The notes beneath the pieces were generated by a model. It searched no databases and was not told where the DNA came from. It saw nothing but the letters and a program-made list of their open reading frames with translations. A DNA stretch of 64,000 bases from Bacteroidales bacterium (GTDB lineage: Bacteria; Bacteroidota; Bacteroidia; Bacteroidales; JAADJA01). The position numbers were made by a program, and so were the translations under genes. The DNA is taken from positions 2,904 to 66,903 of the forward strand of contig JAUVJI010000002.1 of the NCBI GenBank assembly GCA_030596605.1, read 5' to 3'. The stretch's first letter is position 1. Every line of letters starts with the position of its first letter. This document shows positions 2,064-64,000 of this stretch, in pieces.

Positions 2064-2561
2064 ATGGAGAGAATCATTATCATAGATGATATGAACTGCA
2101 AGAAAGGCCTTCAGGAATTCCTTGAAGCCAATAAGGAGCATATTCGATACAGCACAACGATTGACAACTTAAAAAATACAACAAAGTTTTTCATTGATGA
2201 ATTAACCGGTAATTATGAATCCGAAAACAAGCTCGCTGTAAATACCGACAAACAAATCAATATCATCCATACCCATGAAATAATTTACCTTGAAGCATCA
2301 GGCAAAAAAACTAAACTACATCTGAGTAATAATAAATGTGTTGAAGCAATAAACAGTATCGATTCTTACGGCAAAAAGCTTATTAGTGCAAATTTCATAA
2401 GAGTCCACGAACAATATATTGTAAACCTTGAGTATTTCTCAAAATTCAATTTTAAAAATAAACTGGAACTTGAACTCCACAATGGGATTACCATTCCAGT
2501 TGATACTAATAAAAAAGACTTACTAATAAATTATATTGAAAACATAAGTGATAAAATTTAA
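2064..2561 (+). CDS. LytTR-domain DNA-binding regulator with truncated or degenerate receiver remnant
   Basis: The C-terminal ~100 aa (IIHTHEIIYLEASGKKTKLHL...FIRVHEQYIVNLEYF...ITIPV) has the LytTR pattern. The N-terminal ~60 aa starts like a receiver (RIIIIDD) but is far too short for a full REC domain. No histidine kinase gene is present in the window. Confidence 0.75.
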   Translation: MERIIIIDDMNCKKGLQEFLEANKEHIRYSTTIDNLKNTTKFFIDELTGNYESENKLAVNTDKQINIIHTHEIIYLEASGKKTKLHLSNNKCVEAINSIDSYGKKLISANFIRVHEQYIVNLEYFSKFNFKNKLELELHNGITIPVDTNKKDLLINYIENISDKI

Positions 2562-2570
2562 TTAAAACAA

Positions 2571-5500
2571 ATGTTTATTAACCTTAAAATTTTTTATGTT
2601 ATGAAAGACAATTTACATTTTCGAGCAGTTACGAAAGGATTGCTTTTGGGATTAATCTCCCTAGTACTTTTGGGCTATAACAGCAACGCCCAGGTATCGT
2701 TTACACAAACCCTTAATGCCGATTTCTACAAAGGGGTCTATAATGACCTTCTCGTAGGATCGGATAACGTTTATCTGCCATACCAGGCAACCGATGTTAA
2801 CACCTGGCTAACAACTACTATTTTGCCACAAACTCTTGAAGGGCATAAAACAGCAACATGGAACAATCGTTATGTTTATGTTGTTGGAGGTTACAATGAT
2901 GTATCCTACTCAAGTTCTGTGTACCGGGCAACATTAACAACCGGAGGTATCAGCAGTTGGACAACAGAAAACTCCTTACCCGTTGGTTTAAGGGATCATG
3001 CAGTAGTTATAGGAACGAACACCATATATGTTATGGGGGGACGTGACGATACTAATATTTATGATGAGATCTATGCTGCGACAATTAACAGTGACGGTTC
3101 TCTTGGAACATGGGATTTATTATCAGTAACATTACCGGAAACATTATGGGGGCATACTGCAGCATATTGCGGTGGATATATTTATGTTGTAGGTGGATCG
3201 AATATAATGAGTAGTACATATGCAGTACCTGGCGTTTATTATTCAGAGGTTCAGGCTGATAATTCCTTAACATCATTTGCCACTAATGAAGCCATGTTCC
3301 AAGGTAGAAACGGGCACTCAATGGTTGTACACGGAACTACCTTTTATATTATAGGAGGATATGATGATTTTGGAAATAAAAAGAACACTGTCCTGTATAA
3401 TACTTCACAACTTAATGGCCAGCTTACTGCCTGGTCGTACGCGACAAGTTTGCCAATTGCAATAAGCAACCATTCTTCGGTTATTATGAATGGTTTAATT
3501 ACCGTTTTAGCTGGTGAAAGCGGAGGAACCTTAAGCAACAGTGTTTATTATGCTGATATTAATACTTCTCCATTGGTTTGGAACCTAGCTACTAATGTCA
3601 TATACGACAGGACAAAAGACGGAGCTGCTTTTGCAACAACTTTTGCAACAAATGGATGGATTGGATATTGCGGTGGTGAAAACCTTTCGGGTACCCCAAT
3701 CCATAATTCGCGTTATGCAAACCTCACGTTATCGGCTGATTATGAAAAAAACGGGTTCTTTGTTTCCAACCCGTTTTATGAATTAGGTGCCGAACGAGAG
3801 ATCACAGAATTAACCTTCTCGGCTTCAAATCCTGCCGGGTCAAACACAGAAATTGCATACCGTACTGCCGGTGAAGATCTTGATTGGGATAACTGGACTG
3901 CACTGACTTCTACCAGTCCGGTTGTAATTGGAATAACAGACCGTTATCTTCAATATAAGATAGTTTTTACAGGTGATGGCTCAGTAACCCCAACTTTCCA
4001 TGATATGAACCTTTGGACACCGGGAACAGAGCTTGCCGGCAATCTGAATGGCTGGACAACATTTGATTTTGCCAGCAGCCCCTATTGGGTTACTGCTGAT
4101 ATTTCATTTACCGGCGGTACACATACATTTGATGCGGGCGTTGAATTAAACTTCCTGCCTCAAACGGGAATGACTGTAAGCACAGCAAATATAATCTGTA
4201 ACGGAACTGTAACGGATTCGGTTAGGTTCAGAGGCTATACAAGTGAAATTGGTTTGTGGGATGGTATTTATTTTGATCCGAACAGTGACAATGGCGTTTC
4301 ATCCCAATTTTACTATACGGTTATTGAAGGCGCCGGCTATGGAAGCTGGAATGCTAATTTATATTGCAATAGTACCAATGAACCATTGTTGATGCATAGT
4401 AGTTTAAGAGGGGCGGATGGGCATGGTTTAAATTTAAACGCCTCTCATTTAACTATTGAAGAAACCTTTTTTGGAGGAAACACAGAAAGTGGTGTTTATC
4501 ATAACAATTCGAATCCATCATTCCTTAATTGTGAAATGTCGGATAACCAGTTTGCCGGTATTTACCTTTCTTCTGTTGCATCGGAACCCAATTTCTATAC
4601 AGTTCTGTCAGCAAATAATACCTATGCAATGTATTATCCATCACCTAACTTTACTATTCTTCCTCCCAACGGAAGTAACCTGACCTTTACAAACAACACT
4701 TACGATGGTATTTGTTTTGAAGCGGGAGTTGTTTCACAGAGTCAGGTTTGGAATTCTGTTGCTTATGATTATATATTATTAGGGGATGTTTTTGTCCGGG
4801 CTAATTCTTCAACACCACGCCTGACCATTGAACCGGGAAATACAATAAAAACAATACAGGGTTCCAAACTGCAAATCGGAGATTATACAGGTTATCCGGG
4901 TCAAGGCGGTGAATTGTATGCCATTGGAACAGTCGATAGTCTTATCACTTTTACATCATGGAACAGTACCGTTGGCGGATGGGAAGGTATTTATTTTCAT
5001 AATTACAATGATTCCTGGGGAGGGGTATCTGTAATGGATTACTGTGTAATCGAAAACGGGAATGATTACAATATGTTATGCGATCAATCAACCCAACCTG
5101 CAATCAGTAATTCTATAATAAGGGATGCGGTAACTGATGGAATACGGTTCAACGACTCTTATGGTTCTGTTGCCTCCTCTGTTTTTTCTAATTTTGGACG
5201 CTACCCGATATATTTTACAGATTGGAAAGCATCCCCAACTTTGAGTGGCAACACTTATTCAGCGAAAGGCATTAACCTGATCGCACTTGAAGCAGGTGAT
5301 TATTCATCTGACAGGACTTTATACAATGATGGTATTGATTATCTGGTGTTAAATACTATCCGTGTTATGGCTAATAGTAGTACCCCAATGTTAACAGTTG
5401 AAGCAGGACTAACCCTGAATTTTGCTTCGGGTACTATCCTCCAGCTTGCCGGCTATGATGGTTATCCTGGCCAGGGAGGCGAATTATATGCAGTTGGTAG

Positions 5501-7787
5501 TTTAGGGAATGAAATCACATTTAAACCTTATTCTGATATTGCAGGTGATTGGGAGGGTATTTATTTCCATGATTATAGCGATGTCTGGAGCGGAACTTCT
5601 ACTATGGAGTATTGTGTAGTGGATAAAGGGAATGAATATAATGTTTACACTTCATCTACCACTCAACCTTCTATTGACCATTGTACATTTAGCAATGCTG
5701 TTCAATATGGGATTAAAGAAAACAATTCATCACCCCAAATCCATAATTCCCAGTTTTTAAGTAATGGTAGCTATCCGATATATTATGCTAACTGGTCATG
5801 TAACTCCCATTTATTTGGCAATACTTATTCTGGCAACAATCCGGATTTAATTGCTTTGGAAGGTGGGGATTATAGCGCAGACCAAACATTTTATAATGAT
5901 GGTATAGAGTACCATGTCCTGAATACAATAAGAGTCGTTAAAACTTCTGATCCCCGTACCTTAACTTTAAAACCAGGGGTAACCTTAAATTTCGATCCGG
6001 GCACCAGGTTGCAGATTGCTGCATACGATGGATATCCTGGCCAGGGTGGTATGTTAATTGCAAATGGGAATATCGACAGTTTGATCACATTTAAGCCGTA
6101 CAACGATATTGCAGGTGGTTGGGAAGGGATCTACTTCCATGACCGTAGCGATAGTTGGAGCGCTGTGTCATCAATGAAATTCTGCCATGTTGAAAAAGCA
6201 AATAGTTATAATATTCATTTCGAATCGACTAACCAACCTGCAACTTTTGAAAATTGTGAAATAATTGATGCGGTTGGTAATGGATTATATTTTAATAGTG
6301 CAACACCGATTATTGTAAGTTCATCCATTACAAACAATGGAGGTCATGGTATATATCTTGATGGAACAAGTAATCCTGTTATTGGAAATAATACATCTTC
6401 AACTTGTAATATTTTTGGGAACGGGCCTTATGATGTTTACAACAATACGGCAAATGATATTGATGCCCGCAACAACTACTGGGGAACCGGCGACTCTGCC
6501 ATGATCGCTTCCCGGATTTATGATTATTATGATAATACTGCCAAAGGGATTGTCATCTTCGAGGACTTTGCACAGATTCCATCCATACCTACAGCAACTA
6601 CTTTATTAAGCGGTAACGTTTGGTACAATAATGCTTCTTCAACAGATATGGAGGATGCCCTGATGGAGATCTTTGATTTTGGAGGATCGCCTATATCCAG
6701 CACAAATACTAATACTTCCGGTTATTATTCATTCAGTTCCTTTGCTTCAGGAAACTACACATTGGACATTACACCTGATGATGTCTGGGGAGGTGCAAAC
6801 TCAACGGATGCCCTATTGATCCTGAGACATTTTGCTCATCTTGATACACTGGAGGGTATGGAATACGCTTCTGCTGATGTTAATTACAGTCAAACAATTA
6901 ATGGAACAGATGCATTGTTTGTATTGAAACGTTTTGCAGGCATGATCACATCCTTCCCGTCAGGTGACTGGCTTTATAATACCGAAAATCTTACCATTAA
7001 TGGCAACCAGGTTGTAAATGATTTTGCCATGTTGTGTTTTGGTGATGTAAATTCAAATTACATGGAGCCACCAAAGGATGATAATTCTGTTAATCTTGTT
7101 TATGAAGGAACCCAGATTATTCAGTCATTCACTGCTTTTGATTTGACGATTTCAATAAAGGATATGATTGAAGCAGGTGCTATTTCACTTGGTCTTATCT
7201 ATCCTGAAGAATATATAGAGATTACCGGAGCCGAATTAATAAATACAAATGGTAATGCAATTTACACAGTTGAAGACGGATTATTCCGAATTGCTTTTGC
7301 TGACCCTAATGGTGTGAATTATGCTGCCGGGGATGAAATGTTAGTTATAAATTGTGTGGCTAAAGATTTGTCATACATGCAGGAACCGATTCTTGTTGAG
7401 CTCTATGAAGATAGTGAATTCGCTGACCCAATGGCTCAGGTTATCAATGATGTTACTCTTTCAACACCTGAATTAACTACACTTGCCGTTGGAATTAACA
7501 ACCAAATTGCTGATGGATTATGGCTAAGTGATAACTATCCGAATCCATTCAATAAATCAACAACAATTCACTACCAGATTCCTGAATTCGGCTATGTGAA
7601 TATTAAAGTATTTGACATTACTGGTACAATTGTCACCGAGCTAGTGAATAGTAATCAAAAAGGAGGTGAATATACCGTCGAATTTAAATCAGATGATCTT
7701 GAGCCTGGAATCTATTTCTATAAACTTGAATTCAGAAATTCTGAAAATCATAATAGTTTGATAAATAAAATGAGTGTAACACGTTAA
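2571..7787 (+). CDS. Giant modular surface protein: Kelch-like repeats, three 190-aa parallel-beta-helix-type repeats, dockerin-like segment, cohesin-like module, T9SS CTD
   Basis: 1738-aa ORF. A signal-like segment follows the alternative ATG at 2601 (MKDNLHF...LLGYNSNAQ). Kelch-like VVGGY/VMGGR/VVGGS/IIGGY repeats cover ~2800-3750. An exact 570-nt periodicity spans 4677-6386. STDALLILRHFA...GTDALFVLKRFAG lies at ~6780-6945. A cohesin-like AISLGLIYPEEYIEITG block lies at ~7085-7480. The protein ends with YPNPFNKSTTIHY...GIYFYKL. Confidence 0.85.
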   Translation: MFINLKIFYVMKDNLHFRAVTKGLLLGLISLVLLGYNSNAQVSFTQTLNADFYKGVYNDLLVGSDNVYLPYQATDVNTWLTTTILPQTLEGHKTATWNNRYVYVVGGYNDVSYSSSVYRATLTTGGISSWTTENSLPVGLRDHAVVIGTNTIYVMGGRDDTNIYDEIYAATINSDGSLGTWDLLSVTLPETLWGHTAAYCGGYIYVVGGSNIMSSTYAVPGVYYSEVQADNSLTSFATNEAMFQGRNGHSMVVHGTTFYIIGGYDDFGNKKNTVLYNTSQLNGQLTAWSYATSLPIAISNHSSVIMNGLITVLAGESGGTLSNSVYYADINTSPLVWNLATNVIYDRTKDGAAFATTFATNGWIGYCGGENLSGTPIHNSRYANLTLSADYEKNGFFVSNPFYELGAEREITELTFSASNPAGSNTEIAYRTAGEDLDWDNWTALTSTSPVVIGITDRYLQYKIVFTGDGSVTPTFHDMNLWTPGTELAGNLNGWTTFDFASSPYWVTADISFTGGTHTFDAGVELNFLPQTGMTVSTANIICNGTVTDSVRFRGYTSEIGLWDGIYFDPNSDNGVSSQFYYTVIEGAGYGSWNANLYCNSTNEPLLMHSSLRGADGHGLNLNASHLTIEETFFGGNTESGVYHNNSNPSFLNCEMSDNQFAGIYLSSVASEPNFYTVLSANNTYAMYYPSPNFTILPPNGSNLTFTNNTYDGICFEAGVVSQSQVWNSVAYDYILLGDVFVRANSSTPRLTIEPGNTIKTIQGSKLQIGDYTGYPGQGGELYAIGTVDSLITFTSWNSTVGGWEGIYFHNYNDSWGGVSVMDYCVIENGNDYNMLCDQSTQPAISNSIIRDAVTDGIRFNDSYGSVASSVFSNFGRYPIYFTDWKASPTLSGNTYSAKGINLIALEAGDYSSDRTLYNDGIDYLVLNTIRVMANSSTPMLTVEAGLTLNFASGTILQLAGYDGYPGQGGELYAVGSLGNEITFKPYSDIAGDWEGIYFHDYSDVWSGTSTMEYCVVDKGNEYNVYTSSTTQPSIDHCTFSNAVQYGIKENNSSPQIHNSQFLSNGSYPIYYANWSCNSHLFGNTYSGNNPDLIALEGGDYSADQTFYNDGIEYHVLNTIRVVKTSDPRTLTLKPGVTLNFDPGTRLQIAAYDGYPGQGGMLIANGNIDSLITFKPYNDIAGGWEGIYFHDRSDSWSAVSSMKFCHVEKANSYNIHFESTNQPATFENCEIIDAVGNGLYFNSATPIIVSSSITNNGGHGIYLDGTSNPVIGNNTSSTCNIFGNGPYDVYNNTANDIDARNNYWGTGDSAMIASRIYDYYDNTAKGIVIFEDFAQIPSIPTATTLLSGNVWYNNASSTDMEDALMEIFDFGGSPISSTNTNTSGYYSFSSFASGNYTLDITPDDVWGGANSTDALLILRHFAHLDTLEGMEYASADVNYSQTINGTDALFVLKRFAGMITSFPSGDWLYNTENLTINGNQVVNDFAMLCFGDVNSNYMEPPKDDNSVNLVYEGTQIIQSFTAFDLTISIKDMIEAGAISLGLIYPEEYIEITGAELINTNGNAIYTVEDGLFRIAFADPNGVNYAAGDEMLVINCVAKDLSYMQEPILVELYEDSEFADPMAQVINDVTLSTPELTTLAVGINNQIADGLWLSDNYPNPFNKSTTIHYQIPEFGYVNIKVFDITGTIVTELVNSNQKGGEYTVEFKSDDLEPGIYFYKLEFRNSENHNSLINKMSVTR
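4677..6386 (+). repeat. Three in-frame tandem coding repeats of exactly 570 nt (190 aa)
   Basis: The landmark GG(T/A)TATCC(G/T)GG(T/C)CA(A/G)GG(C/A/T)GG recurs at 4890, 5460 and 6030. GGCAA(C/T)ACTTATTC recurs at 5247 and 5817. The protein repeat reads ...GYPGQGGELYA.G....ITF......GGWEGIYFH...D.W......YC...... Confidence 0.9.
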
Positions 7788-7798: not shown

Positions 7799-10700
7799 AT
7801 GAAAACGAAATTTATAATAATCATTTCGGCGCTTTTCATAATTACCTGGCCGGTTTTGCTGCAAAGTCAAACGATAGTAACCACAGCCGGGTCACCATCA
7901 GAGTGTCCCGGGGAAATTGTGGTTCCTATTACAGTGACCAATTGCAACGGGGTCGGAGCCATTTCACTTGTCTTTCAACACGATACCGGGATCCTGACTT
8001 ATATGAACTATGAGAATGTTCATGCAGATTTATCCACAGGACTCCTTATCGTTAATCAGACCGGTGATAAAGTGATCATAAGCTGGGCTTCGACTACTGC
8101 TGCCAATATCGGAAGCGGAACCCTGATGGACATCCGTTTTTCAGGGGTTACCGGAAACAGCAGTTTAACGTGGGACACACAAACACCAGGTAATTGTGAA
8201 TATAGCGATTCAAACGGAAATATTCTTCCGTCTTCTTATACCAACGGCACGGCTACGATTTATCAAGTGCCGGAGGTACTTGATCATCCAGATGATGTTA
8301 CGGCCCTTGTGAACGATGATGTAAGCTTTAGCGTAAATGCCCTAAGCACAGGTATCAGCAGATTATGGTACAGGAGTACGGATGGAGGAACAAACTGGTT
8401 TTCAACCGGAGTAACCTCAGCAACATTGAATGTTTATGATGTAACATTGGACATGGATGGATATTTATACCGCTGCGAGATCAGTGGCACATGCAGTCCA
8501 ATAGCAATCTCTGATGAGGCAGAGTTAACGGTGATTCAACCGTTGATTACATCATTTGATGTGCAGGATGTTTGTCCGGGAAATATTACAATCCCAATCC
8601 TGACATCCAATTTTACGGATGTCGCTTCCCTGTCATTGGCATTTAGCTATAATACCTCAACTTTAACCTATTCGGGTTATCAGAATGTAAATTCCCTGTT
8701 GCCCGGAAACTTTGTATGTAATGAAGTGGGTGGAATGGTATATATGACATGGTCAACTACTTCACCTGTAACTTTTGGAACTGATACAACGCTAGTTGAA
8801 ATTCAATTTACAGGAGCAACCGGAAGCAGTAACCTGACATGGGACTTGACAACACCGGGAAATTGCGAATACACCTATTTGAATGCAGATCAAATTGTTT
8901 CTGTTTTCCAGGACAATTCGTTTACCATTTACCAGGTGCCGCAAATCAATGTTCAACCTGTTGATAAGCTGATCCCGGAAAATACCGGAACTAGCTTTAG
9001 TGTGTCAGCCGTAGCTTCAGGAATTAATTATCAATGGCAGATAAGTACTGATGATGGTGGAATTTGGACAGACATGATCAATGGTGGCCAATACAGTGGT
9101 GTGACATCAGCCACCCTTAACATTTCCAGTGCCTCGCTCTCAATGAGTGGTTATTGGTATCGTTGTATTGTAGGTGGGTATTGTTTACCTGATGCTATTT
9201 CTGATCCCGCCGAATTGATTGTCCTGCCAAGAATAACAGCAATTGCAGGAAATGTTTCTGATTGTCCGGGGACTATTACAGTACCTATTGATGTTACCCA
9301 TTTTATCAATGTTGCAGCCTTTTCCTTAACACTTAATTTTGATGAGGCCATATTAACCTTTGATAATTATCAATCGTTACATAGTAACCTATCAGGTGGA
9401 AGCTTTGCTTTAAATGCTGTTGATGGAAAAGTTTACATGACATGGACTTCAACCACGCCGGCTACCATCGGCGATGACCTTTTGATAGAATTGTTATTTA
9501 CCGGTATCACCGGAAGCAGTTCATTGAACTGGAATAATAGTGTTGAAGGAGCCTGTGAATTCAGCGACCTTGATGGAAATATCATTTTCGATAATTATAT
9601 AAATGGCAATGTCACTGTCTATCAACCTCCGATAATAACCGGTGATCCATCAAATCAAACGGCACCTGAAGGTACTGGAACAAGTTTTTCCGTTTCAGCA
9701 ACAGGAACGGGATTAAGTTACCAATGGCAGGAAAGTGACGATGATGGAAACAACTGGAATAATTTGTCGAACATCGCACCTTATTCAGGAGTAAATACTG
9801 CAACATTACAAATCAATCCAGTTGACCAAACAATGGATGCTTATCAATACAGGTGCAGGGTGTCAGGAACATGTCCGCCGCTGGTTTATTCAAGTTCTGC
9901 AATATTGAATGTGATACCTCCTGTTATTCATACTTCAGCTGGAGATATTTCAAATTCCTGTACAGGCAACATTACTGTACCTATAGGCGTGAGTAATTGT
10001 AATAATGTCGGGGCTATTTCTTTGGCTGTGAATTATGATAATACCAAACTGACTTATGAAGGTTATCAGTCACCAAACAGCGAATTAAGTGGAGGTATGT
10101 TAATTATAAATGCAACAGCAACACAGATTATACTCAGTTGGGCTTCGGTTAATCCGGCGGATATAGGTTTTGGAACTTTGATAGAATATAAATTTAAGGC
10201 CAATGCCGGAACTTCAACAACACTAATCTGGGATACACAGACACTTGGAAATTGCGAATACAGCGACCCTGACGGAAATATTTTTGCCATGGCATTTAAC
10301 ACCGGTGATATTTCTATCGCAGCCAATGCTTTGGTTGTAGATGCCGGAAGTGATGAAACAATAAGTCCGGGAGGGTCAGTCCAGTTAAATGGTTCGGCAA
10401 CAGGTGGTACTTTGCCTTATGGGATACAATGGACACCAACAAACTGGCTGACAGATCCAAATATTTTAGATCCTATAGCTGATCCACCAACTACAACCAC
10501 TTATACTTTAACAGTAATGGATAACCTGGGATGTTCAGGATCTGATGAAATGACGGTTAATGTGACTACAGCTGGAATTGACCTGGAATTGAAAGCTTTC
10601 CTGGAAGGTCCATTCAGCGGAACAACAATGGGAACAGAATTAAATAGCAATAATCTGATTCCACATAATCATCCTTACTCAGGGGCGCCATGGAATTATT

Positions 10701-11245
10701 CAGGATCGGAATATGTAACATGCATTCCAAATACTAATATTACTGACTGGGTAATGGTAGAATTAAGAGAGACAAGTGGCGGAGCTTCAACGGCAACCGG
10801 AGGAACAATGATCGTGCAGCAAGCAGGATTTATCCTGAATGATGGAAATATTGTGGATACAAATAGTACTAACATGATGCATTTTGATGTATTCATTACA
10901 CAAAATCTTTATGTTGTTATCTGGCATAGAAATCATCTGGCTATTATGTCATCCGGACCATTGACAAATGTGGGGGCAACATATTCCTGGGACTTTACAA
11001 CAGGTTCAGGACAGGCTCATGGAACAGATGCCCAGAAAATCCTTGGAGGAGTTTACGGCATGTATGCCGGAGATGGTGATGCCAATGGTACTGTTGAAAC
11101 AGCTGATAAAAGTGCAGTTTGGGGCTCACAGGTTGGAATGAAAGGTTATTACTCAGGTGATTTTGATATGAACGGCCAGGTGATGAACCAGGATAAAAAT
11201 GATGTTTGGTTAGGTAACTTTAATGAACAAACACAGATACCATAA
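7799..11245 (+). CDS. Scaffoldin-like secreted protein: 4 x (cohesin-like + Ig-like) modules, SprB/PKD-like segment, C-terminal LEGPF/HRNHL module with dockerin-like loops; no T9SS CTD
   Basis: Signal peptide MKTKFIIIISALFIITWPVLLQSQ. There are four ~230-aa repeats. Each has a CPG.I.VPI.V......AISL.F.YD...LTY...W.....G..TL block (cohesin-like). Each also has a YQWQ.S.DGG..W......YSGV.SATL.I......GY.YRC block (Ig-like). The C-terminus ends ...NEQTQIP. Confidence 0.85.
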   Translation: MKTKFIIIISALFIITWPVLLQSQTIVTTAGSPSECPGEIVVPITVTNCNGVGAISLVFQHDTGILTYMNYENVHADLSTGLLIVNQTGDKVIISWASTTAANIGSGTLMDIRFSGVTGNSSLTWDTQTPGNCEYSDSNGNILPSSYTNGTATIYQVPEVLDHPDDVTALVNDDVSFSVNALSTGISRLWYRSTDGGTNWFSTGVTSATLNVYDVTLDMDGYLYRCEISGTCSPIAISDEAELTVIQPLITSFDVQDVCPGNITIPILTSNFTDVASLSLAFSYNTSTLTYSGYQNVNSLLPGNFVCNEVGGMVYMTWSTTSPVTFGTDTTLVEIQFTGATGSSNLTWDLTTPGNCEYTYLNADQIVSVFQDNSFTIYQVPQINVQPVDKLIPENTGTSFSVSAVASGINYQWQISTDDGGIWTDMINGGQYSGVTSATLNISSASLSMSGYWYRCIVGGYCLPDAISDPAELIVLPRITAIAGNVSDCPGTITVPIDVTHFINVAAFSLTLNFDEAILTFDNYQSLHSNLSGGSFALNAVDGKVYMTWTSTTPATIGDDLLIELLFTGITGSSSLNWNNSVEGACEFSDLDGNIIFDNYINGNVTVYQPPIITGDPSNQTAPEGTGTSFSVSATGTGLSYQWQESDDDGNNWNNLSNIAPYSGVNTATLQINPVDQTMDAYQYRCRVSGTCPPLVYSSSAILNVIPPVIHTSAGDISNSCTGNITVPIGVSNCNNVGAISLAVNYDNTKLTYEGYQSPNSELSGGMLIINATATQIILSWASVNPADIGFGTLIEYKFKANAGTSTTLIWDTQTLGNCEYSDPDGNIFAMAFNTGDISIAANALVVDAGSDETISPGGSVQLNGSATGGTLPYGIQWTPTNWLTDPNILDPIADPPTTTTYTLTVMDNLGCSGSDEMTVNVTTAGIDLELKAFLEGPFSGTTMGTELNSNNLIPHNHPYSGAPWNYSGSEYVTCIPNTNITDWVMVELRETSGGASTATGGTMIVQQAGFILNDGNIVDTNSTNMMHFDVFITQNLYVVIWHRNHLAIMSSGPLTNVGATYSWDFTTGSGQAHGTDAQKILGGVYGMYAGDGDANGTVETADKSAVWGSQVGMKGYYSGDFDMNGQVMNQDKNDVWLGNFNEQTQIP
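7871..10325 (+). repeat. Four tandem ~690-nt coding repeats (cohesin-like + Ig-like module)
   Basis: Module boundaries are marked by ...IYQVPE (about 8263), ...IYQVPQ (about 8935), ...VYQPP (about 9625) and ...ISIAAN (about 10325). Confidence 0.8.
10577..11242 (+). other. LEGPF/HRNHL module copy A (domain I could not match to a named family, with two dockerin/EF-hand-like loops)
   Basis: IDLELKAFLEGPF...DWVMVELRETSGGAS...HRNHLAIMS...GDGDANGTVETAD...GDFDMNGQVMNQDKND...QIP. Confidence 0.8.
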
Positions 11246-11748: not shown

Positions 11749-14529
11749 ATGAAAACAAAATTATTCATCCCGAAAGCTTTCGGGATCAAATCAATCATCT
11801 TCGGTGTCCTGTTTTTTGGGTTATTATTAAGCCACAGTGCAAATGCCCAGCCCAACCTATGGGGAATGACTTCCTTTGATTATTCGGGTCATTATGGCGT
11901 AATATACTGCTATAACGCAAGTACGGACATTTATACCGTAAAACATTTTTTCGACGAAACAGACGGTGGTCAACCAAGCTATGGATTAATACAGGCTTCT
12001 GACGGGCTGTTATATGGAGTGACAGATTTAGGAGGTGATAATGATGCAGGTGTAATCTTTAAAATTGACCCGGCTAACGGTAATTTTACCAAAATTCACG
12101 ATTTTTATTGGTGGACTGGTACATGGCCTTCAGGTACCTTATTGCAGGCTTCTGACGGGCTGTTATATGGAATGACGAATGGAGGAGGGGACAATGGCTA
12201 TGGTGTTATCTATAAAATCGACCCAAATAATAATGATTTTACCAAAATACATGATTTTAATGGAATGGATGGGGGTTATACAATGGGAGGCTTAATGCAG
12301 GCTTCTAACGGGCTATTATATGGAATGACGTATGAAGGAGGGGACGATGACTGTGGTGTTATCTTTAAAATTGACCCAACTAATAATGATTTTACCAAAA
12401 TACACGATTTTGATTGGACAGACGGAATATGGCCAATAAACAATCTAATACAAGCTTCAAACGGGTTGCTATATGGAATGACATATGATGGTAATTATTA
12501 TGGAGTTATTTTTAAAATTGACCCGGCTGACGATACTTTCACAAAAACATACGATTTTAATTCGGAGGGCAGAAGTCCGTGTGGTGGTTTATTTGAGGCT
12601 TCTGACGGGCTGCTATATGGAATGACGTATGAAGGAGGAGACAATGACTGTGGTGTTCTCTTTAAATATGAACCGCTTAACGATACTTACACCAAAATTG
12701 CCGATTTTAACGGAACAAACGGGGCTAATCCATACAGCACTTTAATGCAGGCTTCCGATGGACTTTTATATGGCTACACAACTGATGGAGGCTCTACCAG
12801 TGATGGCAATATATTTAAATATGACATCACCACCGGGATTCTGACAGGTATTTATGATTTTGACGGAACAAACGGAAATGATCCTTTTTTTGGTAGTTTG
12901 GTAGAGGTAAGTACAAGTGTCACTGTAAGCTGCACTACTCCTGTAACTCCGTTAAATGCAACAACCGGTATAAGTGTTAACACCTCTCTGGAATGGAATA
13001 GCGTACCGGAGGCTGATGCATACCTGTTATACTTCGGAACTGATAATCCGCCAACAAACATTGAAGATGAATTGGATGTGGGAAATGTTACATCATACAC
13101 TCCATGTATAGCATTGGGTTATGACCAAACATATTATTGGCAGGTTATACCTTATAATTCAACCAACACGGCTTTAGGATGTGATATTTGGTCGTTTACA
13201 ACAGAAGACAACAGGATTGATCTTGACCTTACAGTTTATCTCGAAGGGCCATACGATGGCACCGATATGGATACGGATCTTAATCCCGAACTCATCCCTT
13301 TATCCCAACCTTATAACGATCCTTTGAAATGGGATTACCAGGGAATGGAAATTGTTGATAGTATTCCGAATGTGAATGTGGTTGACTGGGTGTTGATAGA
13401 ATTAAGGGAAACCACTGGGGATGCATCAACTGCCCGGCCCGGCACTATGATTGCAAGGCAAGCTGCTTTCCTGTTGAATGATGGGTCTGTTGTTGGTTTG
13501 GATGGTACAGACAACGCATGCGTTGTCTCGTCCCCCATTACCAACAATCTGTTCGTTGTAATCTATCACCGCAACCACCTCGAAATAATGTCAGCCAATC
13601 CATTATCCGAATCAGGAGGGGTTTATACTTACGATTTTACAACACCTGAAGGACAGGCTTATGGAACAGATGCACAGAAAAACCTCGGTGGAAATTACGG
13701 GATGTATGCCGGAGATGGTGATGCCAATGATACTGTTGAAATCGCAGATATAAACAACACCTGGAATTTGCAGGCTGGGAAGAATGGTTACTATTCCGGT
13801 GATTTTGATATGGACAGTGAGGTTAATAATATTGACAAAAATGATGTTTGGTTAAATAATATTGGTATGGCTTGCCAGATGCCGGTTGAAATCCCTGTTA
13901 TTTGTGGTGATCCGTTCACAGATTACCGAGACGGGCAAAGTTATAACACAGTACAAATAGGCACACAATGCTGGATGTCCGAATACCTGAACATTGGTAC
14001 TATGGTAAACGGCAACTGCAACCAAAGCAATAACAGCACTATTGAAAAATACTGTTATGGCAACAACACAAGCAATTGTGATACCTATGGCGGCCTGTAC
14101 CAATGGAATGAGATAATGCAATATGTCACAACACCAGCTGTACAAGGTATTTGCCCTGCCGGCTGGCATTTACCGACTGATGATGAATGGAAAACTATGG
14201 AAATGCATCTCGGTATGACACAAGCCCAGGCTGATGCGACAGGTTGGCGAGGTACTGATGAAGGGGGCAAGCTCAAAGAATTTGGTACAGATCATTGGAC
14301 TTCACCCAATACAGGGGCAACAAATTCGAGTGGTTTCACAGCCTTACCGACTGGTCACCGTAACATCAACGGAAATTTCTGGAATCTCACGAATAACGGC
14401 CAATGTTGGTCATCAAGCGAGAACGGTTATGCCGCATGGAACAGATACCTGGAACATGTTAGCGCACAGGTGTGGCGGAGCGCCAACAACAAGATGGACG
14501 CCTTCGGGGTACGTTGTGTGCTGGATTGA
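11749..14529 (+). CDS. Secreted protein: GloVer-type (Gloeo_Verruco-like) repeat propeller, FN3-like domain, LEGPY/HRNHL module, C-terminal FISUMP (Fibrobacter succinogenes major paralogous) domain
   Basis: Signal peptide ...LLLSHSANAQ. About six to seven ~51-aa repeats read QASDGLLYGMT..GG..G.GVIFKIDP....FTKIHDF. The LEGPY...HRNHLEIMS...GDGDANDTVEIAD...GDFDMDSEVNNID module spans 13216-13896. The C-terminal CGDPFTDYRDGQSYNTVQIGTQCWM...CPAGWHLPTDDEW...GVRCVLD matches the FISUMP signature. Confidence 0.85.
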   Translation: MKTKLFIPKAFGIKSIIFGVLFFGLLLSHSANAQPNLWGMTSFDYSGHYGVIYCYNASTDIYTVKHFFDETDGGQPSYGLIQASDGLLYGVTDLGGDNDAGVIFKIDPANGNFTKIHDFYWWTGTWPSGTLLQASDGLLYGMTNGGGDNGYGVIYKIDPNNNDFTKIHDFNGMDGGYTMGGLMQASNGLLYGMTYEGGDDDCGVIFKIDPTNNDFTKIHDFDWTDGIWPINNLIQASNGLLYGMTYDGNYYGVIFKIDPADDTFTKTYDFNSEGRSPCGGLFEASDGLLYGMTYEGGDNDCGVLFKYEPLNDTYTKIADFNGTNGANPYSTLMQASDGLLYGYTTDGGSTSDGNIFKYDITTGILTGIYDFDGTNGNDPFFGSLVEVSTSVTVSCTTPVTPLNATTGISVNTSLEWNSVPEADAYLLYFGTDNPPTNIEDELDVGNVTSYTPCIALGYDQTYYWQVIPYNSTNTALGCDIWSFTTEDNRIDLDLTVYLEGPYDGTDMDTDLNPELIPLSQPYNDPLKWDYQGMEIVDSIPNVNVVDWVLIELRETTGDASTARPGTMIARQAAFLLNDGSVVGLDGTDNACVVSSPITNNLFVVIYHRNHLEIMSANPLSESGGVYTYDFTTPEGQAYGTDAQKNLGGNYGMYAGDGDANDTVEIADINNTWNLQAGKNGYYSGDFDMDSEVNNIDKNDVWLNNIGMACQMPVEIPVICGDPFTDYRDGQSYNTVQIGTQCWMSEYLNIGTMVNGNCNQSNNSTIEKYCYGNNTSNCDTYGGLYQWNEIMQYVTTPAVQGICPAGWHLPTDDEWKTMEMHLGMTQAQADATGWRGTDEGGKLKEFGTDHWTSPNTGATNSSGFTALPTGHRNINGNFWNLTNNGQCWSSSENGYAAWNRYLEHVSAQVWRSANNKMDAFGVRCVLD
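11950..12900 (+). repeat. Tandem ~153-nt coding repeats (GloVer-type blades)
   Basis: CAGGCTTCTGACGGGCTGTTATATGG-like cores start at 11992, 12145, 12298, 12451, 12595 and 12748. Spacing is 153 nt, with one step of 144. Confidence 0.85.
13216..13896 (+). other. LEGPF/HRNHL module copy B (internal, followed by the FISUMP domain)
   Basis: IDLDLTVYLEGPY...DWVLIELRETTGDAS...HRNHLEIMS...GDGDANDTVEIAD...GDFDMDSEVNNIDKND...EIP. Confidence 0.8.
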
Positions 14530-14581: not shown

Positions 14582-17095
14582 ATGAAAAATCTCATTCTAA
14601 TTAACTTTTTAGTTTTGTTTCTAATTACTTTTTTAACAGGCCAGGTTATTTCTGATTTTGAAATTGAAGATGATACTGAAAATTGGCATTCCGAAGGTGA
14701 TGGCAATTATGGTTGGGAATCAGGCACAGGAAACCCTGGTGGATGTTTTCGTGTAAATGATTATGCCACAGGAGATATGAACCGTGCTTATGCGCCGGTG
14801 AAATTTCTTGGTGACTGGTCATCCGCCACAACAAGTGATTCTATTTCCGCTGACATTTTTCTACATGACATGGGCGGAGGGTATGTAAATCCTAATTTTG
14901 TATTCAGGATTGTTGGCCCGGGAGGTTCTGCTATTGCTATATATGATCCTATACCTACGCCACCACATGATACCTGGATCACCTATTCTGTAAACCTAAT
15001 TGAAAATGATTGGTTTGTTGAATACGGCACATGGGCTGATATTCTTCAACATGTTAGCACATTTATCGTTACAATGGAATATATCAGTGGTGATGAATAT
15101 AATTTGTTAGACAATGTAACTCTTTCTTTTACGCCCATTGCAGTTCCCATTACTCCTGTTCTGTGTTCAGATTTTGAAAGCGGCTTATTTGAAGGATGGT
15201 CGGTAAATGATGCCGGGAGTGCTTCAATAGCAAGCACCGGTGGTAACCCTGGGAAATATCTTAAAATTAATGATGGCACCGGGAATTCAATAGCTGTGCC
15301 TTCATCTATCTATCACGGTGACTGGTCATTACTTGACGGCCATAATGCAGAGATCCATATAGACTATCTGATTACAGATATTAACGGGCCAACCTATTTA
15401 CATGATTTTTTTGTGAAAATTGCAGGTCCGGGGGGCGAAGCAACATATCCCATTGATAACAATATTGAGTTGGCTTTTAACAAATGGCATTCATTTGGTA
15501 TTCCAATTGAGCAAGCAGGCTGGATAATTTTAAGTGGCGATTGGAATTCGTTGATGGATTTTGTGGACGACATCCAAATTGTTGCCGAATTTATCTCTGG
15601 GGATGAAACCGTCGGGATTGATAATTTTTGCATTTCCAATTTACCGCCTTCAACGGAATTTATGGCTGAAAAGATATTTGTCTATTTGGGTGAAACAGTG
15701 CAGTTTTTCGATCAAACAACATCAGCACCGCAAACCTGGAATTGGGATTTTGGCGATTCCGGATCGAGCACAGAAGTTAATCCTTCTCATCAGTACCTTG
15801 CCCCGGGATTATATACAGTATCTTTAACTACAACCAACTACTTCGGTAATAGCACTGAAACAAAAACAGGATACATTGAAGTATATCCGGTTGATCAGTG
15901 TTTAAAGTTTGAAGATGATTTTGACGATAATATTATTCATCAAGCCTGGTCTTTTAAAAATGGGACTTGGAACGAAACATCCGGATTGATGAGGCAATCT
16001 TCAAATCATTATGTATCTGGTAATTACTTGGAAGGCTGTTTTGCTATTACAGGCAGTTTATTGTGGAACGATTATATTGTTTCCTGTGATTTCCGGTCAA
16101 CTGACAATGATATAATTGGTTTTGTTTTTAACTACCAGGATGAACAAAACATGTATATGTTCAGATGGAGGTTGAATCCTTTATACAGATCACTGTTTAA
16201 ATATGAAAACGGAGTTGAAACAGAACTTGCAACTGATAATGTCGGATATATTGAAAACGACTGGTACCATGCTGACATATACTCTTTAGACGGTAATATC
16301 GTGCTTGCTATTAATGGGGTGGAAATTTTTAGTGTTTTTGATGATACATTTACAAATGGGAAAGTTGGGTTGTATTGCTTTGGTAACCAATCCAGTTATT
16401 ATGATAATTTCAAGGTGGAATGTCCGGGGACACCTGTTGAGCTTAAAGTATTTTTAGAAGGGCCTTTTACAGGGTCTGAAATGACCACCGGCTTAAATGA
16501 CCAGAATATTCTTGCATTAAACAATCCCTATCCTAACGCTCCCTGGAATCATACCGGAACAGAAGGAGTGCTTTCATTTTCCAATCCGGATGTAACTGAC
16601 TGGGTGCTGGTAGATTTCAGGGATACTACATCGGCAAGTGCGGCACTACCCGCCTCTTCTATTGGAACCAAAGCAGCGTTGTTATTAAAAAACGGTCAAG
16701 TTATTTCACCTTATGGAGGATTGCCATTGTATCTTAATGCCACCATTAATAATAATCTTTATATTGTTATTCAGCACAGGAACCATTTGGGAATCTTGTC
16801 AGCAAATCCGGTAACAGAAGCCGGCGGAATGTATTCGTATGACTTTACAAACGGATCAGGACAGGCTTATGGAACAAATGCACAGAAAAATCTCGGTGGA
16901 ATTTATGGAATGTATGCCGGAGATGGTGATGCCAATGGAACTATTGAAGTGTCCGATATAAACAACATCTGGGGTTCACAGGTTGGAAAGATAGGATACT
17001 GGTCTGGTGATTTTGATATGAACGGGCAAGTGATGAATCAGGATAAAAATGATGTGTGGTTTTTGAATATAAACGAACAAACACAGATACCATAA
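14582..17095 (+). CDS. Secreted protein: two ~170-aa N-terminal repeats, PKD domain, LamG/concanavalin-like (DUF1080-like) domain, C-terminal LEGPF/HRNHL module; no T9SS CTD
   Basis: Signal peptide MKNLILINFLVLFLITFLTGQ. PKD signature WNWDFGDSGSSTEVNPSHQYLAPGLYTVSLT. A LamG-like block reads FEDDFDD...GFVFNYQDEQNMYMFRW...GKVGLYCF. The C-terminal module spans 16436-17092 and ends ...NEQTQIP. Confidence 0.85.
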   Translation: MKNLILINFLVLFLITFLTGQVISDFEIEDDTENWHSEGDGNYGWESGTGNPGGCFRVNDYATGDMNRAYAPVKFLGDWSSATTSDSISADIFLHDMGGGYVNPNFVFRIVGPGGSAIAIYDPIPTPPHDTWITYSVNLIENDWFVEYGTWADILQHVSTFIVTMEYISGDEYNLLDNVTLSFTPIAVPITPVLCSDFESGLFEGWSVNDAGSASIASTGGNPGKYLKINDGTGNSIAVPSSIYHGDWSLLDGHNAEIHIDYLITDINGPTYLHDFFVKIAGPGGEATYPIDNNIELAFNKWHSFGIPIEQAGWIILSGDWNSLMDFVDDIQIVAEFISGDETVGIDNFCISNLPPSTEFMAEKIFVYLGETVQFFDQTTSAPQTWNWDFGDSGSSTEVNPSHQYLAPGLYTVSLTTTNYFGNSTETKTGYIEVYPVDQCLKFEDDFDDNIIHQAWSFKNGTWNETSGLMRQSSNHYVSGNYLEGCFAITGSLLWNDYIVSCDFRSTDNDIIGFVFNYQDEQNMYMFRWRLNPLYRSLFKYENGVETELATDNVGYIENDWYHADIYSLDGNIVLAINGVEIFSVFDDTFTNGKVGLYCFGNQSSYYDNFKVECPGTPVELKVFLEGPFTGSEMTTGLNDQNILALNNPYPNAPWNHTGTEGVLSFSNPDVTDWVLVDFRDTTSASAALPASSIGTKAALLLKNGQVISPYGGLPLYLNATINNNLYIVIQHRNHLGILSANPVTEAGGMYSYDFTNGSGQAYGTNAQKNLGGIYGMYAGDGDANGTIEVSDINNIWGSQVGKIGYWSGDFDMNGQVMNQDKNDVWFLNINEQTQIP
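16436..17092 (+). other. LEGPF/HRNHL module copy C
   Basis: VELKVFLEGPF...DWVLVDFRDTTSAS...HRNHLGILS...GDGDANGTIEVSD...GDFDMNGQVMNQDKND...QIP. Confidence 0.8.
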
Positions 17096-20509: not shown

Positions 20510-20610
20510 AGTACTGATTTTTAATTATTTAATTATTAATTTATAAATCATTAAATGTTTGTTGCAAGTTTAACGATAAAGATAGCCAAAATTATAAAAA
20601 ATCCTGAAAT

Positions 20611-20646: not shown

Positions 20647-20720
20647 AAAAAAGTCCACCTTCGCTAAAGCTTCGGAGGACAAGTAAAGTTAAAAGTATAA
20701 ATGTTAATTGGAAATTCAGC

Positions 20721-22583: not shown

Positions 22584-22620
22584 TTTTTTAGGAAATGTTT
22601 ATAAAAATAAAAACAGGTTT

Positions 22621-62793: not shown

Positions 62794-64000
62794 TTAGTCT
62801 GGTACCTGGTATTCAAAATCCAGATTTTTTAACCAATTTTCGTTTTTATCGAAATTATCAACCTGGCCATTCAGATTAAAATCCCCAATTAGATATCCTT
62901 GCTTTCCGGATTGTGTGCCCCATATGCTTTTATCTTCAAAATTAACGATCCCATCTGTATTACCATCTGCTGATACCATTCCCCAGACATTGGTTATAAT
63001 TTCCTTGTATCCTGCTTCAAAACCATAAACCTGGTATTGATCCAAAGAAAAATCAAACGAATAATGACCATTATTAACGACAACCGGAACCGAAGTCATA
63101 ATATCAAGGTGATTCCTGTGACGTACGATTATGTATAAATCGTTGCTAACCGGCAAATCAAAAATTGGAATATTTATTTGATCCTGACTTACAATTATCC
63201 CATCCTTTAGCAGAAAACAAGCCTCCTTCAAAATTGTTGAATCAGGGATCGCACTTGAGGCATCGCCACTGGTCTCTCTTAATTCAACCAGCACCCAATC
63301 TACAATATCAGGGTTTTGAATAGATGTAACAGATTCATCGCCAAAATAATTCCATGGTGGTTGATTATAAGGTTGTACCAATGGGAAATTGGTTAAACCG
63401 GTTAAATCGGTGTTCATTTCGTTTCCATCAAATGGGCCTTCAAGAAAAACTTTCAGGTCGAGGAAATATTCTGAAGGTACAATTGAGGATTGAACCTCAA
63501 TATTACAAATAACCGGTAAATGATCGGACATGTAATAGAGAGCCTGCAAAACAGAATCGGGAACAGATGTATTCACAGGAGCATCAATCAATGACATGTT
63601 AAAATGATTCCCGTCATTTCCGAGAGCGTAACATGAATTATTGATATATTTTACACCATTGTTTCCATTTAATACATCATTGCTAAAAAGTATAAAATCG
63701 AACCTATCGTCCATTCCACCGGTCGCACCGCCACCGAATTGCGATGTACGTGTACTCTGTGAATGAATCATTGAATATAAATCATTATTATGCCAGTTAG
63801 CAGCCGGTAGCGGATCATTCAATGGGTATAGCCCATCATTGATCAATGATTGATATGCTGGTTCAGAACTTGTATAGACATTAAAATCCCCACCGAAGAA
63901 TATATTTTTCGCATTGGGTTTATTATCAATGTGATCTTTGTACTCCAATACTTCGGCGAGACGTTTTTGCGCATTTGTGGAACCCGAACTGGCTTTTAGG
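62794..64000 (-). CDS. Endonuclease/exonuclease/phosphatase (EEP) family domain fused to the LEGPF/HRNHL module; N-terminus beyond window edge
   Basis: The frame stays open upstream of the TTG at 63948 to base 64000. GGDFN and MSDHLPV are EEP motifs. A C-terminal LDLKVFLEGPFDG...DWVLVELRETSGDAS...HRNHLDIMT...GDFNLNGQVDNFDKN module ends ...EYQVPD. Confidence 0.8.
   Translation of the reverse strand, partial: LKASSGSTNAQKRLAEVLEYKDHIDNKPNAKNIFFGGDFNVYTSSEPAYQSLINDGLYPLNDPLPAANWHNNDLYSMIHSQSTRTSQFGGGATGGMDDRFDFILFSNDVLNGNNGVKYINNSCYALGNDGNHFNMSLIDAPVNTSVPDSVLQALYYMSDHLPVICNIEVQSSIVPSEYFLDLKVFLEGPFDGNEMNTDLTGLTNFPLVQPYNQPPWNYFGDESVTSIQNPDIVDWVLVELRETSGDASSAIPDSTILKEACFLLKDGIIVSQDQINIPIFDLPVSNDLYIIVRHRNHLDIMTSVPVVVNNGHYSFDFSLDQYQVYGFEAGYKEIITNVWGMVSADGNTDGIVNFEDKSIWGTQSGKQGYLIGDFNLNGQVDNFDKNENWLKNLDFEYQVPD
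62797..63462 (-). other. LEGPF/HRNHL module copy D (on the EEP enzyme)
   Basis: LDLKVFLEGPF...DWVLVELRETSGDAS...HRNHLDIMT...ADGNTDGIVNFED...GDFNLNGQVDNFDKN...QVPD. Confidence 0.8.

Follow-up and report, generated by a model that had tools for sequence, protein, structure and literature searches.

The window, as the whole stretch of DNA analysed here is called, comprises 64,000 nucleotides (nt) of contig JAUVJI010000002.1 from a Bacteroidales bacterium (GenBank assembly GCA_030596605.1). On its forward (+) strand, open reading frame (ORF) 7799 (7799..11245) starts at an ATG 11 nt past the upstream stop codon and encodes a candidate scaffoldin of 1148 amino acids (aa). The protein consists of a putative signal peptide, four type I-like cohesins with immunoglobulin (Ig)-like and PKD-like spacers, and a C-terminal X-module-dockerin dyad (X-Doc). 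An initial annotation of the gene, made from the sequence alone, had described a dockerin-tagged multi-cohesin protein, which remains a fair description since both the cohesins and the dockerin-type C-terminus are supported.

The N-terminal stretch MKTKFIIIISALFIITWPVLLQSQ (7799..7870, +) resembles a type I signal peptide when read from the sequence, as had been proposed; it lacks a lipoprotein cysteine, and the N-terminus is conserved in the orthologs L003-L005. The modules that follow, all on the + strand, are Cohesin 1 (7880..8290), Ig-like module 1 (8264..8533), Cohesin 2 (8546..8959), Ig-like module 2 (8933..9223), Cohesin 3 (9242..9649), Ig-like module 3 (9623..9913), Cohesin 4 (9932..10342), a PKD-like beta-sandwich spacer (10343..10564), an X-module of ∼160 aa (10574..11053) and a dockerin-type segment of two loop-helix units (11054..11242). 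The three Ig modules are mutually 46-48% identical (self-comparison, n=3), and the whole protein matches Ig_3 at 48 bits in two stretches (Pfam, cutoff 30). Module 2 is an internal repeat in the self-comparison and is assigned to Ig_3; module 3 is 48% identical to it and holds the best Ig_3 stretch (aa 610-689); module 1, recovered by tblastn with the module 2 query (46% identity, E 2e-20), is the most diverged of the three and gives a weak Ig_7 match when scanned alone. The place after Cohesin 4 where a fourth Ig module would be expected is occupied by the PKD-like module (K319L-like_PKD, 24 bits, cutoff 27), which AlphaFold2 (AF2) predicts as all-beta with a predicted local distance difference test (pLDDT) score of 85-93. 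Of the four cohesin-Ig repeats described initially, the four cohesins therefore stand and the number of complete repeats falls to three.

Searches for a type IX secretion system (T9SS) C-terminal domain (CTD) gave no match in ORF 7799 to the type A (TIGR04183/PF18962) or type B (PF13585) models, in line with the absence first reported; identical searches match ORF 2571, other window neighbours and same-slot homologs such as P0141. No carbohydrate-binding module (CBM) was found by Pfam, and the NCBIfam search returned no match. Searches of PDB sequences with phmmer, using the whole protein and its 221-aa tail, returned nothing useful; profile searches succeeded.

The cohesin assignment is firm. 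Each module alone exceeds the Pfam Cohesin (PF00963) cutoff of 24.1 bits over profile positions 4-139 of 139, modules 1 and 2 narrowly (24.2, 24.9, 27.3 and 35.1 bits for modules 1 to 4), which bears out the four cohesin-like modules of the initial annotation, and the hmmscan check proposed there scores the whole protein at 72.1 bits. The modules are mutually 41-50% identical (self-comparison, n=4), and a family-specific hidden Markov model (HMM) scores modules 1 to 3 at 200, 171 and 191 bits. When a profile of 26 family modules was searched against PDB sequences, nine of nine matches were cohesins, the top one being 4ums_A, aligned end to end with an E-value of 5e-4. Cohesin 4 was modelled with AF2 as part of aa 700-1148, which also include the PKD-like spacer and the X-Doc, and reached a pLDDT of 91-96. 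Foldseek ranks 1-45 for this module are all cohesins, and the model has the nine-stranded flattened beta-sandwich (jelly-roll) of a cohesin. The closest structures are CohA2 of C. acetobutylicum (6kgc_A; E 2e-11, template-modelling (TM) score to target 0.79, root-mean-square deviation 2.2 Å) and the non-cellulosomal cohesin of A. fulgidus (2xdh; E 5.5e-11, TM to target 0.80). They are followed by type I cohesins (4ums, 1g1k, 1aoh, 1ohz_A and others; E 6e-10 to 3e-7, TM 0.70-0.78) and by type II/III cohesins (4wi0_A, 4fl4_K, 4n2o, 2zf9 and others; E 1e-8 to 9e-7, TM 0.53-0.63). The ORF 7799 modules are therefore placed closest to type I cohesins by the TM ordering of Cohesin 4. The Pfam cutoff, the PDB profile search and Foldseek together identify the modules as true cohesins. 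Within the family, C12 is nearly invariant and C110 invariant, a pair that may form a disulfide. Exactly four cohesins are present in 109 of 120 homologs of ORF 7799.

The last 223 aa of ORF 7799 (10574-11242) form one conserved domain in which the dockerin loops make up the final third. This domain has no Pfam, NCBIfam or PDB-sequence match, and a protein-collection search returned 86 relatives, all from uncultured Bacteroidales/Bacteroidetes and hypothetical in each source that gives them a name. An AF2 model based on a 64-sequence alignment is one compact unit (pLDDT 97.8, predicted TM score (pTM) 0.94), in which a beta-sandwich is followed by two helices (domain residues 176-186 and 205-215) that start within the loop ends. 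The six best Foldseek matches in the PDB are all type II X-module-dockerin dyads, with a probability of 0.98-1.0: the A. cellulolyticus ScaA X-Doc (4u3s_B, 4wi0_B) and C. thermocellum X-Doc chains (2b59_B, 5m0y_B, 3kcp_A, 4fl4_L). All six alignments cover the whole query at 9-14% sequence identity, and the TM to target is ∼0.6 for chains that hold an X-Doc alone. The model thus has the fold of an X-Doc dyad, an Ig-like X-module packed N-terminal to a dockerin. Similarly, the longer model comprising Cohesin 4, the PKD-like spacer and the X-Doc was aligned by Foldseek over 244-250 columns to the CipA fragment that contains the ninth cohesin and the X-Doc (3kcp_A, 4fl4).

Dockerins consist of two tandem 12-residue EF-hand-like calcium loops, with ligands at positions 1, 3, 5, 9 and 12, each followed by a helix, and the ORF 7799 tail holds two such loop-helix units with predicted calcium loops. 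Loop 1, DGDANGTVETAD (aa 1092-1103, 11072-11107), and loop 2, DFDMNGQVMNQD (aa 1121-1132, 11159-11194), each carry D1, D3, N5, G6 and D12, and their first aspartates lie 29 residues apart, as expected from the two DxDxNGxVxxxD loops about 30 residues apart noted at the outset. Across 64 X-Doc sequences the ligand positions are highly conserved in loops 1 and 2, respectively: D at position 1 (60/64 and 63/64), D/N at position 3 (58/64 and 56/64), D/N/S at position 5 (61/64 and 61/64), V/I at position 8 (60/64 and 57/64) and D at position 12 (63/64 and 63/64). A conserved K13 and W17 follow each loop, so that the two halves of the tail are internally symmetric. A profile of the tail alone ranks dockerins first in the PDB (E 2e-6 to 2e-4, including 2ccl_B, 4uyp_B, 1ohz_B and 2y3n_B at 5e-5 to 2e-4), ahead of calmodulin EF-hands (E 0.002-0.03), and covers both repeats of the PDB dockerins, for example positions 4-47 of 2vn6_B.

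Intermediate sequences connect this tail to canonical dockerins. P0084, a distant member of the 223-aa family, passes Pfam Dockerin_1 at 35.2 bits. Furthermore, 14 of the 55 four-cohesin proteins with an X-Doc match match the X-Doc model in part, as a shorter X-like module would; the three such short-X tails inspected end in textbook dockerin repeats (GDVNQDGVIDTADM ... TDVNGDGIIDTADM), and Dockerin_1 is their top Pfam match (22.4, 23.5 and 17.1 bits, cutoff 22.9). From these intermediates, the ORF 7799 tail is identified as a diverged dockerin, and the C-terminus as dockerin-type within an X-module-dockerin dyad nearest the solved type II X-Docs. The free tail of ∼70 aa implied by the initial annotation does not hold: the loops sit inside the 223-aa unit and not in a stand-alone dockerin of ∼60-70 aa. 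The tail profile, the related tails and the model all bear out a dockerin, and the structural comparison that had been proposed returned dockerin-bearing matches, but its six best hits place the domain among type II dyads and not with the type I dockerin suggested. A bare type I dockerin tail was accordingly rejected, as conservation extends over all 223 aa and the predicted fold is that of an X-Doc.

The X-module contains more invariant residues than the dockerin part (G12, M19, W59, G91 and R119-N120-H121, the 'HRNH' motif), and because most invariant residues lie there, a function of its own is suggested for this module. Nearly all members of the family end in a conserved Q-[VI]-P.

Immediately upstream, ORF 2571 (2571..7787, +) encodes a giant protein of 1738 aa with a Kelch beta-propeller, a right-handed beta-helix and a C-terminal cassette (Pfam: Kelch 116 bits, Beta_helix 85 bits, Por_Secre_tail 46 bits, and Dockerin_1 at 20.7-22.7 bits, just below the cutoff of 22.9). 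The cassette occupies the last 395 aa (6600-7784) and comprises a CarboxypepD_reg-like module, a type I-like dockerin, a cohesin and a T9SS type A CTD. In a PDB search with the cassette dockerin profile, 24 of 24 matches were dockerins or dockerin-bearing enzymes, among them 1ohz_B (E 1e-9), with both helices covered. By hhalign, the cassette cohesin is a homolog of those in ORF 7799 (probability 98.9%, E 2e-17, against 0.04% for the control); the family-specific cohesin HMM missed it, and it was detected by hhalign and the cassette HMM. At E<1e-30 the cassette family has 744 representative clusters, rising to 21,425 at E<1e-10; among the 150 listed proteins, which reach 5695 aa, the cassette is C-terminal. 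Its adjacent dockerin and cohesin could bind each other in cis or chain proteins in trans; we know of no study of either mode in this cassette.

The pair formed by the giant gene and the four-cohesin gene is a conserved unit. It is kept in the same order and orientation in five of five loci (the window, L001, L002, L082 and L083), with a gap of 11-13 nt in the latter four. L001 and L002 are orthologous loci, at 66% and 81% identity, with the gene order of the window: LytTR regulators, a ∼1720-aa Kelch/beta-helix/Dockerin_1/CTD gene, an 11-nt gap, the four-cohesin gene and X-Doc cargo, namely an Exo_endo_phos protein in L001 and Peptidase_C10/CUB and Pel9A-like beta-helix proteins in L002. X-Doc cargo genes thus cluster beside the scaffoldin gene in all three X-Doc-type loci (the window, L001 and L002), and the window as a whole encodes five cohesins, four X-Docs and one canonical dockerin. 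The gene immediately before the giant gene encodes an orphan LytTR DNA-binding protein of 165 aa (2064..2561, +; LytTR 51 bits). A LytTR-only gene occupies the matching position in L001 and L002, after a TPR histidine kinase and a LytTR response regulator, and is likely a dedicated regulator of the locus.

The four X-Docs of the window, found by tblastn and HMM, lie in ORF 7799, ORF 11749, ORF 14582 and ORF 62794. ORF 11749 (11749..14529, +) carries an internal X-Doc (13216-13884; 58% identity by tblastn, 323 bits by HMM) between a GloVer repeat propeller (TIGR03803, 322 bits) and a Fib_succ_major domain (133 bits). Such a combination, in which GloVer 'choice-of-anchor' repeats precede the X-Doc and a FISUMP (Fibrobacter succinogenes major paralogous) domain forms the C-terminus, is unusual. 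ORF 14582 (14582..17095, +) combines, according to Pfam, PKD, TSP3-type calcium repeats and a LamG-like module with a C-terminal X-Doc (16427-17092; 55% identity by tblastn, 315 bits by HMM). ORF 62794 (62794..63948, -) has a weakly Exo_endo_phos-like N-terminal part and a C-terminal X-Doc (62800-63462; 288 bits by HMM). A strict regular expression for paired loops at the matching spacing picks out three of the four X-Doc ORFs and has no other match in the window; the loops of the ORF 11749 copy are diverged, and this copy was recovered by HMM.

Beyond the window, a scan of one genome per species yielded at least 581 X-Doc-coding stretches, all in metagenome-assembled genomes (MAGs) and mostly in Bacteroidales, with a few MAGs labelled Chlorobiota, Ignavibacteriaceae or Calditrichaceae. 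The domain tends to occur several times per genome, one MAG supplying 8 of the best 80 copies. Among 89 carrier ORFs, 76 have the domain no more than 3 residues from the C-terminus, 8 have it no more than 20 away and 5 carry it internally; the complete carriers mostly have signal-peptide-like N-termini without a lipoprotein cysteine. The partner domains of the X-Doc in 58 proteins belong to 45 Pfam families: Peptidase_C25 with its propeptide (4), Exo_endo_phos (4) and Cohesin (3); Peptidase_M14, Peptidase_C10, FISUMP, LTD, Recep_L, beta-helix, GEVED and Metallophos (2 each); and S8, CotH, a CBM48-like module and a lectin-like module (1 each). No glycoside hydrolase is found among the 25 most frequent Pfam families of these 58 proteins. 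Three C25 peptidases and one M14 carboxypeptidase end in an X-Doc and lack a T9SS CTD. Both elements coexist in one protein of L012 (1351-5376, MAG SRP167671_co1_176), which carries an internal X-Doc (aa 552-772) and a terminal Por_Secre_tail (aa 1266-1341), so that the role of the X-Doc is distinct from that of the CTD. An 85-aa ORF at L002:19803-20057 matches the dockerin end of the X-Doc alone (HMM positions 159-222, 73 bits) and may be a gene fragment or remnant.

The C-terminus is the variable part of the four-cohesin protein. Among 121 proteins (the 120 homologs and that of the window), 41 end in a full X-Doc, 14 in a short X-like module with a canonical dockerin, 50 in a T9SS CTD, as assigned from precomputed PF18962 flags, and 16 in something else. 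The CTD-type proteins P0141 and P0155 are encoded in the same slot, with 12-13 nt separating their genes from the same giant gene upstream, and are followed by housekeeping genes. On a quick neighbour-joining tree of the cohesin core, which is rough, the C-terminal type requires ∼14 changes, compared with ∼44 after shuffling of the trait; tail types therefore cluster by lineage, yet exchanges between them have occurred several times. The X-Doc and the T9SS CTD are thus interchangeable in the four-cohesin gene. A third tail variant is seen in P0111, P0112, P0116, P0119 and P0122 (1190-1191 aa), which extend ∼333 aa past the last cohesin and lack both X-Doc and CTD, four of them matching fn3; P0129, P0146 and P0163 end ∼156-159 aa past the last cohesin. 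Some relatives already carry the database label 'cohesin domain-containing protein'.

Taken together, these features make it probable that this uncultured Bacteroidales bacterium has a non-cellulosomal cohesin-dockerin system, with the ORF 7799 protein as its secreted, non-catalytic scaffoldin. The upstream ORF 2571 protein would be exported and anchored on the outer membrane via its T9SS CTD, and the scaffoldin would be held at the surface by calcium-dependent cohesin-dockerin contacts with this neighbour: its X-Doc may dock on the neighbour's cohesin, the neighbour's type I-like dockerin may dock on a scaffoldin cohesin, or both. The remaining cohesins would recruit dockerin-tagged exoproteins, giving a multi-enzyme assembly displayed on the surface, with proteins and nucleic acids and not cellulose as its main targets. 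Two pairing schemes can be envisaged. In the first, the type I-like cohesins of ORF 7799 would bind the type I-like cassette dockerin and the X-Doc would bind the cassette cohesin, a pairing modelled on CipA, whose X-Doc binds SdbA; this would account for the retention of the gene pair in CTD and X-Doc lineages alike. In the second, X-Doc cargo would bind the four ORF 7799 cohesins, which would explain the clustering of cargo genes beside the scaffoldin gene.

Several observations weigh against this assignment. The Pfam Dockerin_1 model (PF00404), the other hmmscan check that had been proposed, does not match the C-terminal 221-aa and 70-aa segments of ORF 7799 even at E≤10. The Foldseek E-values of the X-Doc model are marginal (1.6e-3 to 2e-2), and its TM scores normalised to the query are 0.43-0.46, which is low because the X-module is ∼60 aa larger than clostridial ones. 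In the AF2 model of aa 700-1148, built on a shallower alignment that included five fn3-type relatives without X-Doc, the dockerin end has a pLDDT below 50; the high confidence of the first X-Doc model is therefore dependent on a diverse alignment. The pTM of 0.51 for this longer model gives no hint of a cognate intramolecular contact and is neutral on pairing. No X-Doc cargo is present within 10 kb downstream of the CTD-type relatives, though they keep four cohesins, so that the ligand of the cohesins may not be the X-Doc. X-Doc proteins have neither a T9SS CTD nor a lipoprotein signal, which leaves their crossing of the outer membrane unexplained, and if they stay periplasmic the surface-scaffold model fails. 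Finally, all organisms with the four-cohesin/X-Doc system are uncultured MAGs.

The same lack of a known sorting signal keeps alive a different explanation, which we consider unlikely: that the X-Doc is mainly an export or sorting device replacing the T9SS CTD, either as a new C-terminal T9SS signal or as a hitch-hiker tag that binds the cohesin of a CTD partner in the periplasm, the folded complex then exiting together via the T9SS translocon. Its extreme C-terminal position in 76 of 89 carriers, its conserved Q-[VI]-P end and its replacement of Por_Secre_tail in same-slot homologs, with repeated switches on the tree (∼14 vs ∼44), would all be accommodated, as would the excess of invariant residues in the X-module and the cohesin lying directly beside the CTD of the conserved neighbour. 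Cultured Bacteroidota typically export C25 and C10 peptidases through the T9SS, and in this family C25, C10, M14 and S8 peptidases bear an X-Doc and no CTD. However, the X-Doc has no similarity to the type A/B CTD models, no CTD structures appear among its Foldseek matches, and it is internal in 5 of 89 ORFs, standing beside a terminal CTD in L012 and before FISUMP in ORF 11749. This coexistence and the internal copies argue that it is more than a substitute for the CTD, and piggy-back export by the T9SS has no precedent known to us. The specific proposal that the X-Doc is a T9SS piggy-back tag, by which CTD-less proteins bind the cassette cohesin in the periplasm and are co-exported and surface-anchored with the CTD carrier, strikes us as decidedly unlikely; if it were true, a diderm bacterium would be using cohesin-dockerin pairing both to secrete proteins and to anchor them.

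A surface adhesin or matrix protein, with cohesin-fold and Ig modules binding ligands other than dockerins (polysaccharide, host or neighbouring cells, or the giant Kelch/beta-helix partner via other surfaces) and calcium loops stabilising the C-terminal domain, is likewise an improbable explanation. It would account for the CTD-type relatives without nearby X-Doc cargo, and repeated Ig/PKD spacers and conserved cysteine pairs are typical of adhesins; moreover, according to Peer et al. 2009, which PMC8542988 and PMC6487960 cite, cohesin-like modules are reportedly widespread outside cellulosomes, often with no demonstrated dockerin partner. The concentration of five cohesins, four X-Docs and a canonical dockerin in one 64-kb window argues otherwise, as do the X-Doc cargo genes beside the scaffoldin gene in the window, L001 and L002, the conserved paired loop-helix dockerin signature with its symmetric K13/W17, and the spread of a modular tag across 45 Pfam cargo families, a hallmark of a docking system. 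The multi-cohesin, scaffoldin-like layout could also be that of a genuine cellulosome, a plant-cell-wall-degrading complex as in clostridia, to which the Pel9A-like beta-helix cargo of L002, the CBM48-like and lectin-like modules and the FISUMP domain of ORF 11749 might be added. This is most improbable: the scaffoldin has no CBM in Pfam, and peptidases and phosphoesterases dominate the 58 X-Doc proteins, with no glycoside hydrolase among their 25 commonest families. The cellulosome was rejected on this cargo content. The non-cellulosomal cohesin-dockerin scaffold is therefore the reading we retain for ORF 7799. In sum, what the initial annotation had observed in this protein is real and partly confirmed, and its interpretation is partly supported.

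The remainder of the window encodes genes of other kinds. Five tandem paralogous T9SS-CTD proteins of ∼620 aa lie at 18632-28875 (-), and a sixth similar ORF at 45140-46993 (+); each has a single EF-hand-like loop (DINxNGxxDxLD), and Pfam, run on two of them, gave one weak BNR match. A Fic/DOC protein (17576-18448), a SusC/SusD pair (38662-43557) and a TMEM260-like O-mannosyltransferase with TPR (58017-61076, -) appear to be ordinary Bacteroidota context. The SusC/SusD pair and the many Por_Secre_tail proteins indicate that the window derives from a Bacteroidota genome.

Nearly all that is understood of cohesin-dockerin assembly comes from the cellulosomes and amylosomes of Gram-positive bacteria. 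The same docking logic appears, judging from sequence, in T9SS-bearing Bacteroidales, with a conserved two-gene core. The X-Doc is a large family (at least 581 copies in species-representative genomes) left unannotated in the profile libraries searched (Pfam, NCBIfam). Its cargo of gingipain-type and other peptidases and of nucleases points to surface 'proteolysome'-like complexes in Bacteroidales of anoxic sediments and digesters. The interchange of X-Doc and CTD, together with the abundance of the cassette, raises the question of how CTD-less exoproteins reach and stay on the outer membrane. On the practical side, these modules may supply new orthogonal cohesin-dockerin pairs with which to display proteins on Gram-negative hosts.

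Among known systems, the layout of ORF 7799 appears closest, by analogy, to the primary scaffoldin CipA (Coh_n-X-DocII), followed by adaptor scaffoldins. CipA of Acetivibrio thermocellus (Clostridium thermocellum) combines type I cohesins, an X-module and a type II dockerin that docks on type II cohesin proteins anchored by S-layer homology (SLH) modules. Like CipA, ORF 7799 has several type I-like cohesins followed by a C-terminal X-module-dockerin dyad, and the Foldseek alignments of the X-Doc model include 2b59_B and 5g5d_B. The CipA gene lies beside that of an anchored cohesin protein, and here too the scaffoldin gene adjoins the gene of a surface-anchored protein with a cohesin beside its anchor, the anchoring of ORF 2571 being predicted. 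The differences from CipA are substantial: the host is a diderm with T9SS-CTD anchoring and not SLH/S-layer anchoring; there is no CBM3, and the spacers are Ig and PKD modules; the X-module is ∼160 aa in length, compared with ∼95 aa, and unrelated in sequence; the dockerin is not recognised by Pfam Dockerin_1; the X-Doc cargo consists of peptidases and nucleases and not cellulases; and the anchoring partner bears its own dockerin and a huge Kelch/beta-helix body.

The adaptor scaffoldins ScaB of A. cellulolyticus and ScaB of P. cellulosolvens share with ORF 7799 the logic of a multi-cohesin protein that is itself dockerin-tagged, and 4ums_A, the best match of the cohesin profile, is the seventh type I cohesin of P. 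cellulosolvens ScaB according to the Foldseek table. They differ in that no scaffoldin hierarchy is apparent here, the CTD-ending and X-Doc-ending forms sharing one slot in different lineages. The adaptor-scaffoldin logic invoked by the initial annotation thus holds in part, with a CipA-like primary scaffoldin (Coh_n-X-Doc) at least as close. At the level of fold, the closest solved structures to Cohesin 4 are the non-cellulosomal cohesins of A. fulgidus (2xdh) and C. acetobutylicum (CohA2, 6kgc), at 22-25% identity, but these are single modules in unrelated architectures and lack the conserved cysteine pair of this family.

The nearest precedent in a T9SS-CTD lineage is the cellulosome-like complex described in silico in Ca. 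Stygibacter (Cloacimonadota), with a tandem-cohesin scaffoldin that carries a T9SS CTD (PMC8542988). Its enzymes have signal peptides and C-terminal dockerins, include Peptidase C25 and S8 members, and were proposed to target polypeptides as well as polysaccharides (PMC8542988). The tandem-cohesin scaffoldin and the dockerin-tagged C25/S8 peptidases parallel the present system; in contrast, the Ca. Stygibacter scaffoldin is 3755 aa long, has CBM2/CBM3 domains and bears the CTD itself, its dockerins are recognised by InterPro, and an X-Doc dyad, a Doc-Coh-CTD partner gene and a CTD/X-Doc swap are not described there (PMC8542988). Cohesins and dockerins have also been noted in Bacteroidetes bins in rumen metagenome papers (PMC6487960, PMC6071333). 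The claim that such a system had not been described in T9SS-bearing Bacteroidota is thus tempered by the in-silico precedent in T9SS-type Cloacimonadota (PMC8542988), and holds insofar as no functional or experimental test was found in PMC8542988, PMC6487960, PMC6071333 or the searched literature. In that literature, which covered X-dockerin and cellulosome-like systems in Bacteroidales/Bacteroidota, no paper was found on the X-Doc family, the Doc-Coh-CTD partner or the CTD/X-Doc swap. The general idea is therefore known in silico from Cloacimonadota, and these three elements are new with respect to the searched literature.

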